From NCBI RefSeq assembly GCF_011045215.1, contig NZ_CP049202.1: DNA of 64,000 bases. One strand, written 5' to 3'. The stretch comes from Escherichia coli (GTDB lineage Bacteria > Pseudomonadota > Gammaproteobacteria > Enterobacterales > Enterobacteriaceae). The position numbers were made by a program, and so were the translations under genes. Positions 45,593 through 53,698 of this stretch are shown here, piece by piece (positions within the stretch are counted from its first letter, which is position 1; each line of letters opens with the position of its first letter). The notes under the pieces were generated by a model, which had not been told where the DNA came from, searched no databases, and was given only the letters and a program-made list of their open reading frames with translations.

Positions 45593-45661
45593 TTAGTGGG
45601 TCTACTCCCTCCAAAAGACTGAACCGCCCCGGGTTTCCTGGAGAGTGTTTTATCTGTGAAC

Positions 45662-46552
45662 TCAGGCTGCCAGATCATCGTTTCCGATGGAAGCATAATA
45701 AGCTTTTTCTGCTTCTGCCGGTGGGATATGGCCCAGCCTTTCCAGCAATCGTCGATTGTTATACCAGTCCACCCACGTGAGTGTGGACAGCTCCACTTCT
45801 GTCCGGTTTTTCCAGCGCTTACGGTGTATTACCTCCGCTTTGTAAAGGCCATTGATGCTCTCCGCCATCGCGTTGTCATACGAGTCACCAGTACTCCCTG
45901 TTGATGCCAGTAAGCCGGCTTCCTTAAGCCGCTGCGTGTAGGCCAGCGATACATACTGAGAACCTTTATCACTGTGGTGGATTGTGCCGGACGGCCGACG
46001 GGCCCACAACGCCTGCTCCAGTGCATCCGGCACGAATGCCGTTTCCATGGATGATGAGACCCGCCATCCCACGATGTATCCGGCGAACACATCAATGATG
46101 AACGCCACATAAACGAAGCCCTGCCATGTGCTTACCCAGGTAAAATCAGCCACCCACAACTGGTCAGGACGTTCTGCCACGAACTGACGGTTTACGCGGT
46201 CGCATGCGGCAACGGCTTTCCGGCTGACGGTAGTGCGGACCTTTTTACCCCGGAGAACACCGGCAAGTCCCATAACCGCCATGAGACGTGCCACAGTGCA
46301 TCTGGCCACTCTGATACCTTCCCGTAACAACTGACGCCAGACTTTACGCACACCGTATACCTGGTGATTTTCATCGTATACGCGCTGTATCTCTTTCTTC
46401 AGCCAGTCATCGCGCTGCGCACGGGCACTGCGTTTATCAGGATGATGTCGCTGTTGCTGACAGTGGTAATACGTTGACGGGGCAATATGCAGTTCGCTGC
46501 ATACCGGTCCGACCCCGTACTGCTCACGCAGCTTATCCAGCAGTGGCATCAT
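45662..46552 (-). CDS. IS629 OrfB (transposase catalytic subunit)
   Basis: 296-aa ORF with rve-type DDE region. Confidence 0.85.
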
Positions 46553-46875
46553 TTTTTCCAGAGGCGGTCGAACTCCGCCTTCGCAAAATAAGCGGAAGCC
46601 TGGCGAAGGATATCGTTACTGCGGCGCAGTTCACGATTTTCACGTTCCAGCTCTTTCAGACGCTGACGTTCAGCGGTGGTGAGCCCACCATCACCGCCCC
46701 CGGTATCCCGCTCATGCTGGCGTACCCAGACACGCAGAGTCTCCGGCGTACAGCCAATTTTTGGAGCAATGGAACAAATTGCCGCCCACTGTGAATCATA
46801 CTCATCCTGACTTTCCAGAACCATACGAATCGCTCGCTGACGGACTTCGGGGGAAAAACGAGTATTTTTAGTCAT
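46549..46875 (-). CDS. IS629 OrfA
   Basis: 108-aa [22 protein letters not shown]…, HTH plus leucine zipper. Confidence 0.85.
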
Positions 46876-46926
46876 CCTGTTTACCTCTTTCTCAGGGAGT
46901 TTAGTCTCCAGGATTCCCGGGACGGT

Positions 46927-49224
46927 TCAATGATTGTCAGTCGCTAATGACTTTGGTTGTATTTCACTGGTATTGTTATATAACAAGTCAAATGCAAAAT
47001 GACCTTCATATTCATTTGGAGAAATTACCACAGTTGATAATGGCACATGATTAGATACCAGTGTCATCGCAGAACCCCCTTTCCCCTTTCTGAAATACTT
47101 GGCAGAATAACGGGCTTTAAATGTATTTATTCTGCAAGTGTGCTTCTGCCCATCAACACTTCCAAATGGAGAATTTTCATTTATCGTCCAGTATTTATAT
47201 ACAGAAAGATTTGCAATTACATCAGATATTACTGTGTTGGCCATTCCTGTTGTTTCTGGACGAATGAATTTGTCATTCACATCACGTAGTATTCCAATAC
47301 TACGGTCTGATGCAGATGCCATTCTGTGAACACCATAATTTGCGCCATTACCAAATATACAAGCAAGAAGGTCATTATAGTTAGCTTCAAGATTATTTTT
47401 CCTAGATGATATGGCATTAAACACAGACAAAAAATTCGTCTCATTGTTTACATACTTCATTACGTCAACTATCCCGATATTTTTATCTGATTGTAAATCG
47501 GATTATCGATGCTGGTCTTCTATTTTTTACTGGCCAGACTCCACTGTAATCTGTTGGAGTGTGGTTGTTTTTTCACAAACTCATTAACATCTGAGTTTAT
47601 TCCAATGGTTATACGAGCCAGTTTATCGCTAAAGGTATTCTCCAGGTCATTAAGAGTCTGCGTTATTGGTGTGATAAGTCGTTCAAGGCCTGTTTTCTCT
47701 ATCAAAATCGATTTATTCTTATCCCAGTAACTTCGTTCTATGAGATCATCTTCCAGTCTCTTGTTTTGTTCACTCTCCGCAGCATAAAAGACACCGTTTT
47801 CCAGATGGTTAGATACCCTGCTGTACATATGAAATTCGAATCGTTGAGTGTTAATTTCTCCTTTTTTTACAATGTAATTTTTCTCGGATGGATGAATTAC
47901 CCTCAGATCCTTAGCATCCAGCTTTCCTTTTCCTCTGAGATCATCCTTGGCAGCAGTAATTTGCTGGCCAATAACAGACTTCTCGTTGTCATATACTATT
48001 ATCTATAGTCAGAAAAAGCTTTCGGATTGAATTGGCGATCTTAAGGTGATGGCTGTCAATATACTACCATTGATATTCAATTACATCGATTTTATTTTTG
48101 TCAAAAAATTCACTCACAAGATGCATATCATCTTTCGATATAAGTGAAAAAACCTTTTCACGAACATATCCAAACGGGATGCTGTCTTCAATGTTACTAT
48201 CAACGAAGAAGTTAAATATTTTACTCGCAAACTTAAGCTTTTTATTTATTAGATCTATTTCCTCTGTTGCCCGAGCTTTTGCAAACAAAACTGAAGCGTC
48301 TTTATGTTTTTTTACTAAATATCTGAAGGCCGTGATTATTTTATCATTTATCTCTCTGTATCTGAAGTACAAGTAGCAGCACAAATAAAGTATTCCTTGC
48401 CATTTAGGGTGTCGCTTAAGTCTGAATGTTGTACTGTGTTTTACGATAGTTGCATAGTACTCCATGTTTCCCTGGGATATACCTAATGAATTAATTATAT
48501 CTTTTATTTCATAGTAAATACTACTTATCACATTGTGTGTTCTTAATTCATTTTCTATTTCTGATGCTGAGAAGTCCCTCGTGCTATAATTACATCCATC
48601 ATCATGGATGATGGATGTAATCTTTTGTGCAGTGGCAGGATAAATTCTCTTTGACAAAATATTAATTGTCCTTTTCCTTTCAAAGTTTAAAGCATCTGAA
48701 ACGAGGTTCTGGACAGTACTGTATCCAGGAAGAGCTATACGCCGCTGTCCTAAAAAAGCAAGTAATTCATCAAAAATATATTTGGGTTCCATACATATAG
48801 TAGCAACATCATTCAGACGTTCACTTAACTCATTTTTTATAGATGGGGTGAGTTGTTCAAATCCTAGAGTAGAAAGCATTCGTTTAACAAGGCGGTGCTT
48901 TGTACTTTTAGGTATGTTTAAATTGAGATTAGTACTTTCGTTTTTATAATATGTCTGGATAATATATTTCACATCCCTTTTTACGTCTTTTAATGTAAAT
49001 TCAGGAATCACAGGTTTATATCTGAAATACCCTGTTATTAATATCAGATACACCCTGCTTTCTATATTTATTATTTTATCAATTTCTCTTTTAAGGCTGA
49101 TATCCAGCGAAAAAAACTCATCCCTTTCAACAGGATTAAAAGAGGGGACTTGATATAATTCATTTATTTCACTTTTTGTTAATATACTAATTCTTTTCTT
49201 GTACTTCTGCATACATTTACCCAA
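46927..49224 (-). pseudogene. tnpA: Tn3-family transposase (tnpA) remnant, fragmented into three ORFs and 3'-truncated by IS629
   Basis: ORFs 48064..49224, 47520..47828, 46927..47460 resemble N-terminal, middle and DDE regions of Tn3-family TnpA; AT-rich. Confidence 0.55.
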
Positions 49225-49367
49225 ATGCTAAATATTTTTAAATATGGCGAGTATTAAATATTAAGATATCTGATACCTGTCTAAAACAGCATAAAAGCAG
49301 GTTTCAAAAATCGTATTTTGTACATTATGATACCATGCAGTGTCGAAAACGATAAGTGAGACTAAAA

Positions 49368-49949
49368 ATGGCGTTATTGGGGTATGCACGGGTATCAACT
49401 AGTCATCAGAAGCTAACACATCAAATCTCGGAGCTAAAAAATGCCGGGGTACGGGAAGATCGTATTTTTACGGATATGATGACTGGCGCAACTGATGAAC
49501 GGGAAGGACTACAGCGGTTGTTGGCCCGTGCAGAGAAAGACGACGTAATCATCTGTACAAAAATGGACCGACTGGGGCGTAACACTGCTGACATGATTCG
49601 TGTGGTTGATAGCTGTTACAAAAAGGGGATCGCCATCCGGTTCCTGGAGAACGGTCTCAGTACAGAAGGGACAATGGGCAAAATGGTTATCCAAATCCTT
49701 GCTGCTGTAGCTGAAGCGGAACGTGAGCGTATTCTGGAGCGGACAAACGACGGAAGAATAGCGGCACTTGCCGCAGGCGTAAAATTTGGCAGGAAGAAGC
49801 ATCCACGAACGCCTACAGCGTTGGAGCTTATATCACAGGGAGAATCTCTGGGCAGTGTGACAGAAAAAACAGGTATCTCTCGATCGACGTACTTCAGGTT
49901 AAAAAGAACAATAAAAAATGATGCTAAAATTGCAACGTTTTATAAATAA
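49368..49949 (+). CDS. tnpR: Serine recombinase/resolvase (TnpR-like)
   Basis: About 193 aa from Met (MALLGYARVSTS…) within track ORF 49356..49949; catalytic-Ser motif and C-terminal HTH; divergent from tnpA remnant. Confidence 0.8.
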   Translation: MALLGYARVSTSHQKLTHQISELKNAGVREDRIFTDMMTGATDEREGLQRLLARAEKDDVIICTKMDRLGRNTADMIRVVDSCYKKGIAIRFLENGLSTEGTMGKMVIQILAAVAEAERERILERTNDGRIAALAAGVKFGRKKHPRTPTALELISQGESLGSVTEKTGISRSTYFRLKRTIKNDAKIATFYK

Positions 49950-49972
49950 ATTCAATTAATTACCTAAGCAAG

Positions 49973-50587
49973 GTGAGACTTTTAGAGGAAATGGGCGCGA
50001 ACCCCCATAATCTGAGAGAACTGCAGTTCGGTATATACCCTGAGTCAATTCATGTGCTTGACTGGTTTCATATAACGATGAGGCTGACGGTGTTAATGCA
50101 GTATGCAAAGGGACCGCAGGCATCAGAGCCAGCGACGGGCAGTAAGGTGTTATCGCTTCTGGAAAGCAGTAAACGATATCTCTGGCACGGTAATGTTGCC
50201 ACTGCACTGGATCGCATTGACGATTGCGTTATGTACTGTGATGACCATGAACTCAACTATGTAAACCTGAAAGCCCTGCAAAAACAGCTGGATGAGATGT
50301 ATACCTACATCCGCAATAATCAGATGATGATCCCAAACTACGGAGAAATGTGCCGGTATGGTGAGCCGGTTTCAACAGCGTTTGTCGAGTCAACAATCAA
50401 CGAAGTGATCGCCCGACGAATGGCCAAAAAGCAGCAGATGCAGTGGAGTAGAAAGGGCGCGCATTATTTGTTACAGACCAGAACTGCAGTCCTGAATAAC
50501 GAACTACAGGACAAATTCGCCAGTTGGTATCCCGGTTGTACGATAGACGCTCAGAGTAGAGGGACGTTATCCGCGATGGCAGCATAG
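49973..50587 (+). mobile_element. Transposase C-terminal fragment (possibly ISKra4-like); family uncertain
   Basis: 204-aa ORF with transposase-like C-terminal blocks (…LDWFHI…, …QWSRKGAHYLLQTRTAVLN…). Confidence 0.35.
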
Positions 50588-50643
50588 CTACTGCCCCAGG
50601 GTTTTTCATGCTCTCCTTAACTGACCCAGTGAGGTGAAGACCT

Positions 50644-52174
50644 TTGATAATCATAATCAGTGAAATGCAACGCAAGCTTGCCACATGGACAGCAACCGCC
50701 CCGTCCCGACGGATTACACGGCTGCTGCGTCTGATAACACAACCAGAATGGCTGGCTGAAGCCGCACGGATCACCCTTTCATCAAAAAGGGCACATACCC
50801 CCGGTGTTGACGGTGTGAGTAAAGCAAAGCTACAGGCCAGACTGCCTGCTGAGTTGCAGAGACTCAGCGAAGAACTTCTCTCTGGTCACTACCAGCCTGT
50901 ACCAGCCAGACGGATTTATATCCCTAAAAGCAACGGCAAACTGCGACCACTGGGTATCCCCACGTTGCGGGAACGTATTGTTCAGCGGACCATGCTGATG
51001 GCGATGGAGCCGATATGGGAGAGTGATTTTCATGCGCTCTCGTATGGCTTCCGGCCTGAACGCAGTGTCCATCACGCGATCCGCACGGTAAAATTACAGC
51101 TCACCGACGGTAGTGAAACCCGGGGACGCTGGGTGATACAAGGGGGATCTGTCCAGCTACTTCGATACAGTACATCATCGACTGCTGATGAAAGCAGTAC
51201 GCCGCAGGCTCAGGGATCCACGCTTTATGGTCCTGCTGTGGAAAATCATTAAAGCAGGACACGTTGATGTCGAACTCTTCCGGGCGGCCAGTGAAGGTGT
51301 GCCACAGGGCGGAGTGATCTCGCCGTTGCTGTCGAACATCATGCTAAATGAGTTCGACCAGTATCTTCATGAACGTTACCTGAGCGGAAAAGCCCGGAAA
51401 GACAGCTGGTACAGGAATAACAGTATCCAGCGGGGTCGAAGCACAGCAGTCAGTGAAAACTGGCAGTGGAAACCAGCGGTGGCGTACTGCCGCTATGCCG
51501 ATGATTTCGTGCTCATCGTTAAAGGTACTAAATCACAGGCAGAAACCATCAGGGAGGAGTGTCGTAGCGTGCCCGAAGACAGTCTGAAACTCAGGCTGAA
51601 CATGGACAAGACCAGAATCACCCATGTTAACGACGGCTTTATCTTTCTGGGGCGCAGGATTATCCGCAAACGCAGTCGTTACGGCGGTATGCGGGTGGTC
51701 ACGACGATCCCACGTGATAAAGCCAGAAACTTCGCGGCATCCCTGACGACATTGTTATCAGGCAATTACAGTGAAAGCAAAATCGATATGGTTGAGATAC
51801 TCAACCGAAAGCTGAAAGGCTGAGCTGCGTTCTATCAGTTAGTTGATTTTAAAGCCAAAGTGTTCAGTTCTATCGACCGAGTTGTGTTCTGGAAGCTGGC
51901 TCACTGGCTGGCCCGAAAATACCGTAAAAGTATTGCATACCTGATGAGGTGGTGGTGTAAATCGCCAAAACTAGGTCAGAGTAAAACGTGGATTTTATTT
52001 GGTAAAACCAACCACGGGAAGCTCAACGGTGAAGTACTTTACCGGTTGGTCGGACAAGGCAAGAAGTCGTTCCGCTGGCGTGTGCCTGAGAGTAACCCTT
52101 ACCTGAGGACAGAGACCAGAAACACGTACACGTCACGATATCCGGAAGTGGCAATGGCACTAGCCAGCGTTTAG
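50644..52174 (+). pseudogene. Group II intron reverse transcriptase/maturase, inactivated (one frameshift, one in-frame TGA)
   Basis: Three consecutive ORFs carry RT domains (…GVDGVS…, YADD in AYCRYADDFVLIV) and maturase domain; frame change near the G-run at ~51141; TGG-to-TGA at ~51824. Confidence 0.75.
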
Positions 52175-52249
52175 ACGGAAAGCCGGATGCGCTGAAAGGT
52201 GCACGTCCGGTTTGGAGAGGAGAGACAGGGAAATAGCCCGACTACGCCC

Positions 52250-52790
52250 TGTCTCTTACTCTACTCAGCACATGGCAGGGCTTCGTCTATGTGGCGTTCA
52301 TCATTGATGTGTTTGCCGGATACATTGTGGGATGGAGGGCCTCATCGTCCATGGAAACGACATTTGTGCTGGATGCACTGGAGCGTCGACCGTCCGGCAC
52401 TGTCCATCACAGTGATAAGGGTTCTCAGTATGTATCACTAGCCTACACGCAACGGCTAAAGGAAGCCGGATTACTGGCATCAACAGGGAGTACAGGCGAC
52501 TCATATGACAACTCGATGGCGGAGAGCATCAATGGTCTTTACAAAGCGGAGGTAATACATCGTAAGAGCTGGAAAAACCGTGCAGAAGTGAAACTGGCCA
52601 CACTCACATGGGTGGACTGGTATAACAATCAACGCTTACTGGAAAGGCTGGGCCATATCCCTCCGTCAGAAGCAGAAAAAGCGTATTATGCTTCCATCGG
52701 AAATGATGATCTGGCAGCCTGAGTTCACAGATAAAACTCTCTCCAGGAAACAGGAAACCCAGGGCGGTTCAGATATGTCCACGATGCGTG
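52250..52790 (+). mobile_element. IS629-like fragment (3' part of orfB plus terminal repeat)
   Basis: ORF 52291..52722 near-identical to the C-terminal half of IS629 OrfB; IR-like sequence at ~52735-52790. Confidence 0.7.
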
Positions 52791-52948
52791 CGTTGTGACG
52801 AAGGCTGGGATGCCTGAAAGTGTGCGTATCATCTGACAACAGCAACCGTTGGCTGGGGTGCTTATTCAAAATCTGATTTATTCAACAAAACCGCTAATCA
52901 GCTTTCCTGCAGGCCGGTCTGATTAACGGTTTTGTAGTATTCCTATCT

Positions 52949-53698
52949 TTACGATATATTAATCATGTTTTTTTTCATTTCCATTGGAGTGATACCAAAG
53001 TATTGCCTGAAGGTACTAATGAAATAAGAAGTACTTGAATATCCACATCTTGTTGCTAACTTATTTATAGATAATTCACTTATCATTAAACGTCTGGCAT
53101 GTTGCATACGCACATCTAACAAGATTTGAGAAAAAGATGTGTTTTCTTCATAAAGTTTTCTTTTTATAGAACTTTCACTCATGTAAAGATACTGCCCAAT
53201 ATCTTTCATTTTCCATATTCGTGATGGTTGTGAATATATAATACATCTTATTTTCATTACCAATGAGTTGATGCTTTTAACCAACAGAGATAAGAACCCT
53301 GTTTGCTCAGAAAATGCTGAAATACATGTAAAAAACATCTGCTCTGAAAATGCAATGGGTAGTAATGTATCGGAATTGAGTTTTCGTATTATACTGCGTA
53401 AGATAGATACCTCTTCTAATGGTGCTTTTATATAATGTGTAACATTCGGATTTTCTACATACAATGGTATACAGGTGCATTCCAGATACTTTGTTATTGT
53501 TTTTTCACTAATTTTTAATTCTGTAAATTTACTGGAATATACATAAAAATCATATCTTGATCTACTATCTGTTAGAAAAGCATGATTTTTATTTGCTTTT
53601 ATTTTTTTTCCATCGATGTTAATGATGAATGATGAATTAACCAGAATTACTGAACAGGGATACATCTCAATTGCTCCATTATTTAGTTCATAAGCCAT
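52949..53698 (-). CDS. AraC-family virulence-type regulator (AggR/Rns/PerA-like, C-terminal HTH)
   Basis: 249-aa ORF; C-terminal …GYSSTSYFISTFRQYFGITP… typical of this subfamily; very AT-rich. Confidence 0.65.
   Translation of the reverse strand: MAYELNNGAIEMYPCSVILVNSSFIINIDGKKIKANKNHAFLTDSRSRYDFYVYSSKFTELKISEKTITKYLECTCIPLYVENPNVTHYIKAPLEEVSILRSIIRKLNSDTLLPIAFSEQMFFTCISAFSEQTGFLSLLVKSINSLVMKIRCIIYSQPSRIWKMKDIGQYLYMSESSIKRKLYEENTSFSQILLDVRMQHARRLMISELSINKLATRCGYSSTSYFISTFRQYFGITPMEMKKNMINIS

Follow-up and report, generated by a model that had tools for sequence, protein, structure and literature searches.

The stretch of E. coli DNA considered here (contig NZ_CP049202.1; the window, meaning all 64,000 nucleotides analysed) contains reverse transcriptase and maturase motifs that no single open reading frame holds together, which raises the question of what the gene once belonged to, how it was broken and whether any of it still works. 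A sequence-only reading had described a decayed group II intron maturase, and that description is borne out: with a probability of roughly 94%, the feature at 50617-52264 is what remains of a mobile group II intron, now dead, of the E.c.I4/IntA type. It is the broken 3′ two-thirds of such an intron, lying amid insertion-sequence debris on a plasmid, and it keeps a domain IV stub, the reverse transcriptase/maturase ORF and domains V-VI, followed by the original 3′ exon. The object is ordinary rather than novel, and its pseudogene status is already in the RefSeq annotation. Its parts, with the exon, are:

50617-50664, + strand: residual intron domain IV, 48 nt lying 5′ of the ORF (alignment to three relatives)
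50665-52174, + strand: ltrA pseudogene, reverse transcriptase/maturase (Pfam on the pieces, TIGR04416 on the repaired protein, RefSeq)
50644/50665-51252, + strand: first ORF piece, RVT_1 profile positions 1-60 (E=5.8e-8)
51138-51140, + strand: frameshift lesion, ACA against TG in all three relatives, net +1
51188-51823, + strand: second ORF piece, RVT_1 profile positions 74-203 (E=4.9e-19)
51821-51823, + strand: nonsense lesion, Trp386 to stop (W386*), TGA against TGG in all three relatives
51860-52174, + strand: third ORF piece, GIIM maturase domain (E=2.4e-4)
52178-52264, + strand: intron domains V and VI (Rfam RF00029 Intron_gpII, model positions 1-77, full length)
52265-52771, + strand: 3′ exon, right-hand portion of an IS3-family element resembling IS629 (RefSeq; Pfam rve, rve_3 and rve_2)

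The identity of the element as a group II intron is secure because the pieces match RVT_1 and GIIM and the RNA that follows (domains V/VI) matches Intron_gpII. The second ORF piece carries the YADD motif (…CRYADDFVLIV…). Conceptual repair (one base removed, the stop read as Trp) gives a protein of 502 aa that passes the 300-bit cutoff of NCBIfam TIGR04416 (group II intron RT/maturase) with 326 bits and is 87% identical in amino acids to the intact 502-aa ltrA of pAA-EA11, a plasmid of O104:H4 (NC_018666.1, ltrA WP_001189111.1). The RT and maturase (X) domains of a bacterial group II intron are both there; the gene as found is a pseudogene. The two proteins share the same domains, and no other Pfam domain was matched in the intact pAA-EA11 ltrA. 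The motifs had been read as lying in three frames: they are indeed spread over separate pieces, but only two frames are used (50644/50665 is in frame 1, 51188 and 51860 are both in frame 2). The ORF spans 1510 nt against 1509 nt (502 codons) in intact relatives, which fits a single +1 change.

A covariance search of the kind proposed for 52170-52260 places catalytic domain V and branch-site domain VI right after the ORF, as a bacterial group II intron would have them, at 52178-52264 (63.2 bits, E=4.5e-10, gathering score 40). The two domains fold as expected: an AGC triad is found, and in domain VI the predicted fold leaves the branch-site A bulged. Both helices differ from those of pAA-EA11 by compensatory A-U/G-C changes, and these changes indicate that the domain V/VI RNA was under structural selection while the two lineages diverged. 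In a permissive Rfam scan of 48500-53500 only domains V/VI were real; a c-di-GMP-I match at 50780-50861 (25 bits against a gathering score of 35, and inside the RT ORF) and a snoRNA match at the permissive threshold were dismissed as chance. The intron ends at 52264 (…CTCTAC), and the exon beyond it is an orfB integrase-core fragment with small internal deletions that runs to the IS end, …GGTTCA. This exon shares 90.6% identity with the 3′ part of IS629 in pAA-EA11 and 88% with an uninterrupted IS629-like copy elsewhere in the window (45620-46929). The 3′ junction reads CTCTAC|TCAGCACATGGCAGGG, exactly as in the IS629::intron of pAA-EA11; the 5′ junction is lost. The remnant sits at the conserved site in the orfB (DDE) region of IS3-family (IS629-type) elements into which introns of this type usually retrohome, the target specificity being taken from PMC3522654.

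How the gene was broken was determined by alignment to three relatives: pAA-EA11, which is intact, and NZ_CP010151.1 and NZ_LR882059.1, both about 96% identical. Exactly two ORF-breaking changes are found in the window ltrA. At the frameshift site the relatives read GTGATTGAGGGGGATC and the window reads GTGATACAAGGGGGATC, which turns …RWVIEGDLSSYFD… into …RWVIQGGSVQ…. A G5 run (51142-51146) lies directly 3′ of the lesion, and simple slippage in this run was rejected as the cause: the 96% relatives have a run of equal length, and what changed is TG, replaced by ACA. The nonsense lesion hits the Trp of the maturase motif NRKLKGW. Alignment to bacterial group II intron ORFs was the check that the sequence-only reading had called for, and it returns the one frameshift and one TGG-to-TGA change that had been predicted, with no other ORF-breaking change, while correcting the particulars of each: the frameshift put at a G-tract near 51141 lies beside the G-run but is a complex TG-to-ACA change 5′ of it with no change in run length, and the stop in the LKGW motif falls at 51821-51823, not at about 51824. 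Both lesions are private with respect to pAA-EA11, NZ_CP010151.1 and NZ_LR882059.1, which carry TG and TGG there; the frameshift and stop codon would have arisen in the window copy's own line.

The 5′ side was compared with the full-length intron of pAA-EA11, which measures 2270 nt (positions 2372-4641 of the compared segment) and runs from GTGTG… to …CTCTAC. Its exons rejoin to a continuous IS629 orfB (…DFTY|VSTWQG…), matching the uninterrupted IS629-like copy of the window. Intron homology in the window starts at 50617, equivalent to segment position 3001 or intron nt 630, and is kept to the intron end; intron nt 1-629 (segment positions 2372-3000) have no match anywhere in the 64 kb window. 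Judged from this comparison, the first 629 nt, with domains I-III and the exon-binding sites, are gone together with the 5′ exon, and an earlier suspicion of 5′ truncation is confirmed. Domains I-III, the 5′ GUGYG and the exon-binding sites are what a functional member would have; the window copy is a fragment of a member. The Rfam models for domains I-IV found nothing even in the full-length relatives CP098958.1 and pAA-EA11, so the absence of the 5′ domains is a result of sequence comparison and not of covariance models. The domain IV stub itself carries a 6-nt tandem duplication (ATAATC, 50647-50652 and 50653-50658) just upstream of the ltrA start codon, which is absent from pAA-EA11, NZ_CP010151.1 and NZ_LR882059.1, all of the relatives aligned.

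What replaces the missing sequence is part of another mobile element:

50007-50616, + strand: right end of an ISKra4-family IS, about 610 bp (blastn to ISKpn19, NF033572, RefSeq)
49973-50587, + strand: ORF for the C-terminal part of an ISKra4-family transposase, 50009-50587 being within the IS (NCBIfam NF033572 positions 270-422 of 422, E=3e-50)

The sequence-only reading had noticed a transposase-like ORF here and no obvious 5′ intron domains, and both points hold, the ORF being this C-terminal part. The fragment is 81% identical to ISKpn19 (blastn aligns 50007-50617; ISKpn19 occupies 1249-4102 of a plasmid segment). Its terminal inverted repeat, …CATGCTCTCC, ends at 50616, and the break in the intron (50616|50617) falls exactly there. 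The terminus was defined by where flanking sequences diverge: two ISKpn19 copies in different plasmids share sequence to …ATGCTCTCC and then part, and in CP098958.1 a 98%-identical copy of the window fragment also stops at …CATGCTCTCC, beyond which the DNA is unrelated. At its left end ISKpn19 has the inverted repeat GGAGAGCATGAAAAA…, complementary to the terminus defined here. Because the intron is joined to an exact IS terminus, the junction is the signature of an IS transposition event, and the exact-terminus junction is the basis on which we infer insertion of the ISKra4-family element into the intron over some other recombination at the IS end. The element would have landed in domain IV of the intron, some 48 nt before the ORF begins, and a later rearrangement of this IS-rich region may have removed everything to the left of the junction. 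The window element is without about 2.2 kb of its own left side, so that its left end and any target-site duplication are missing, and Tn3-family tnpR/tnpA remnants adjoin it.

The F4 (K88) fimbrial plasmids carry a 98%-identical ISKra4-family right end (corresponding to window 50309-50616) directly downstream of an intact IS629::intron, beside faeJ; in CP098958.1 it lies at 5147-5464 of the compared segment. These plasmids gave an apparent collinear match over 50309-52385, which was rejected: blastn places the ISKra4-like piece downstream of the IS629::intron in CP098958.1, and since it is not collinear there, the match is not a longer version of the window junction. The same fragment therefore recurs in a different arrangement.

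The relatives also bear on when function was lost. Between the repaired window ORF and pAA-EA11 ltrA, dN/dS is 0.13 (dS 0.50), which indicates long purifying selection before decay; both lineages were accordingly still functional genes as they diverged. On the individual branches, parsimony gives nonsynonymous to synonymous changes of 19:11 for the window, 21:3 for NZ_CP010151.1 and 11:3 for NZ_LR882059.1, and these counts indicate relaxed constraint on all three. The last two are the closest relatives examined in detail (96.2-96.5%). Like the window copy they are pseudogenes in IS debris; they differ from it in occupying another IS3-family target and in their lesions. NZ_CP010151.1, from the chromosome of E. 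coli D8, carries two nonsense changes (W266* and K396*), has lost 1 nt at the stop and is truncated at its 5′ end by about 45 nt; the plasmid copy NZ_LR882059.1 has a 137-nt ORF deletion and an intact 5′ end.

Three other explanations have to be set against an IS-truncated, inactivated intron. 5′-truncated group II intron copies are common in bacteria. Fragments are reported in PMC3522654, and the NZ_CP010151.1 copy has its 5′ break some 45 nt inside the intron, where the junction is not with an IS, so truncation might come from abortive reverse transcription during retrohoming, the origin of many retroelements that lack their 5′ part, and not from an IS event. A product of that process should abut its 5′ exon (IS629 orfB); the window intron instead abuts the exact ISKra4-family terminal inverted repeat, and we regard this origin as very unlikely. 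The lesions might, alternatively, be sequencing or assembly errors in an ORF that is truly intact. Among public records the nearest to the window is NZ_CP010123.1 (plasmid A of E. coli strain C5, of bovine origin; locus RG28_RS28290). It shows in essence the same locus, between identical types of ISKra4 and IS3 fragment; over 9.6 kb the two sequences are set apart by 10 substitutions and 5 indels in homopolymers. Because of these five homopolymer differences at least one of the two assemblies has indel errors, and the frameshift does adjoin a G5 run. Within the intron part (1648 nt), however, there is one substitution only, at 52031, and all other differences are outside the intron. Both ltrA lesions are present in NZ_CP010123.1, a non-identical record deposited separately, where RefSeq/PGAP annotates ltrA as "frameshifted; internal stop" between an "ISKra4 family transposase, incomplete, missing N-terminus" and an "IS3 family transposase, incomplete, missing N-terminus"; the single ORF that re-sequencing might have restored does not appear. 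Moreover, the frameshift is a TG-to-ACA replacement and not a change of homopolymer length (the G-run being as long as in relatives), the stop is a substitution, and the first 629 nt of the intron would be missing even if the ORF were intact. Error as the source of both lesions is extremely unlikely.

Least credible of all is that the fragment is a domesticated or still-functional RT, working as split polypeptides, through programmed recoding or in trans. ORF-breaking lesions are few (two), domains V/VI are well preserved, and the pieces singly still match RVT_1 and GIIM. Against this, relatives need no frameshift or readthrough at either site, the frameshift cuts the RT domain in two (between about 60 and 74 on the profile), the branch-specific changes show relaxed constraint, a domain I-III partner is absent from the 64 kb window, and other copies of the 96% sublineage bear different, independent inactivating lesions. 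The inactivated intron remains the preferred reading. With domain I missing, its RNA cannot fold or recognise exons; with the maturase not intact, there is no protein help for splicing or reverse transcription; and on both counts the remnant is presumed to have no splicing or mobility function, that is, to be unable to splice or move, and is probably junk travelling with the IS debris of the plasmid. The locus matters very little: in agreement with automated annotation, it holds a retroelement remnant without function among mosaic IS fragments, and is at most one more data point on how Enterobacterales group II introns ride on ISs and plasmids and are often inactivated there.

The family to which the remnant belongs can be stated more closely. 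The E.c.I4 intron described by Leclercq and Cordaux (2012, PMC3522654) has specific insertion positions within the IS3-like transposases of IS629, IS911, ISEc16 and ISEc31; E. coli 55989 contains multiple copies of it, and the paper also records many inactivated copies and fragments on mobile elements. A plasmid of E. coli 55989 is among the sequence matches of the window copy, and membership of E.c.I4 fits its target site and collinearity, the label being attached through the host strains and target sites of that paper and not through a reference sequence. With pAA-EA11 it shares a 502-aa RT and maturase, domains V/VI, the 3′ junction and the conserved DFTY|VSTW site of an IS629-type orfB, and it is collinear over 1641 nt. 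It differs in being 86.7% identical in nucleotides (87% in amino acids), and in the lack of the first 629 of 2270 nt, the +1 frameshift, W386* and the 6-nt duplication upstream of the ATG. The 86.7% is identity to the common intact form found in strains listed by PMC3522654 (55989 plasmid, pAA), not to a curated E.c.I4 reference. This common form, at about 87% to the window copy, is intact and extremely widespread, with matches in 1,838 plasmid records and in 2,313 of the 5,426 complete E. coli genomes.

Introns share a name by convention at about 95% identity. At about 87% the window copy may, by this database convention, be a related but distinct intron. Its best matches at 95-99% identity among plasmids and complete E. 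coli genomes (a band with 18 E. coli records) are pseudogenes or partial copies, as are both of those inspected (NZ_CP010151.1 and NZ_LR882059.1), and no evidently intact copy of the 96% sublineage was found among 72,556 plasmids and the 5,426 complete E. coli genomes. All three copies examined, the window copy included, have independent lesions. It is conceivable, if somewhat doubtful, that the window copy and its 96% relatives form an unnamed sister lineage of E.c.I4, about 13% diverged, of which all known copies are dead. If that is true, the lineage would illustrate concretely the "extinction" phase that has been proposed for group II introns of enterobacteria. On the D8 chromosome another group II intron RT, likewise broken, lies about 3.7 kb further downstream (NZ_CP010151.1 segment 10305-11615); its annotation gives two CDSs, "reverse transcriptase domain-containing protein" and "maturase-specific domain-containing protein", with a transposase fragment after them.

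Comparison with NZ_CP010123.1 also touches a 249-aa ORF on the minus strand at 52949-53698, which is intact in the window. The other record splits the same stretch into two CDSs ("helix-turn-helix domain-containing protein" and "hypothetical protein"), the window having an extra T at about 52968 and an extra A at about 53262; the difference points to homopolymer errors in one assembly or the other.

To the left of the ISKra4-family fragment the window holds the remnants of a Tn3-family transposon (46927-49949), of which these parts can be told apart:

46927-47460, - strand: tnpA fragment, a 177-aa piece
48064-49224, - strand: tnpA fragment, DUF4158 N-terminal part
49356-49949, divergent from the tnpA fragments: resolvase gene, directly abutting the truncated ISKra4-family element

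Beyond them lies the uninterrupted, intron-free IS629-like IS3-family element on the minus strand (45620-46929), which is 95-96% identical to the pAA-EA11 IS629. It has an ALIL frameshifting pseudoknot at 46478-46594 (Rfam, 121.5 bits), and its E.c.I4-type homing position reads DFTW|VSTW, not DFTY|VSTW.
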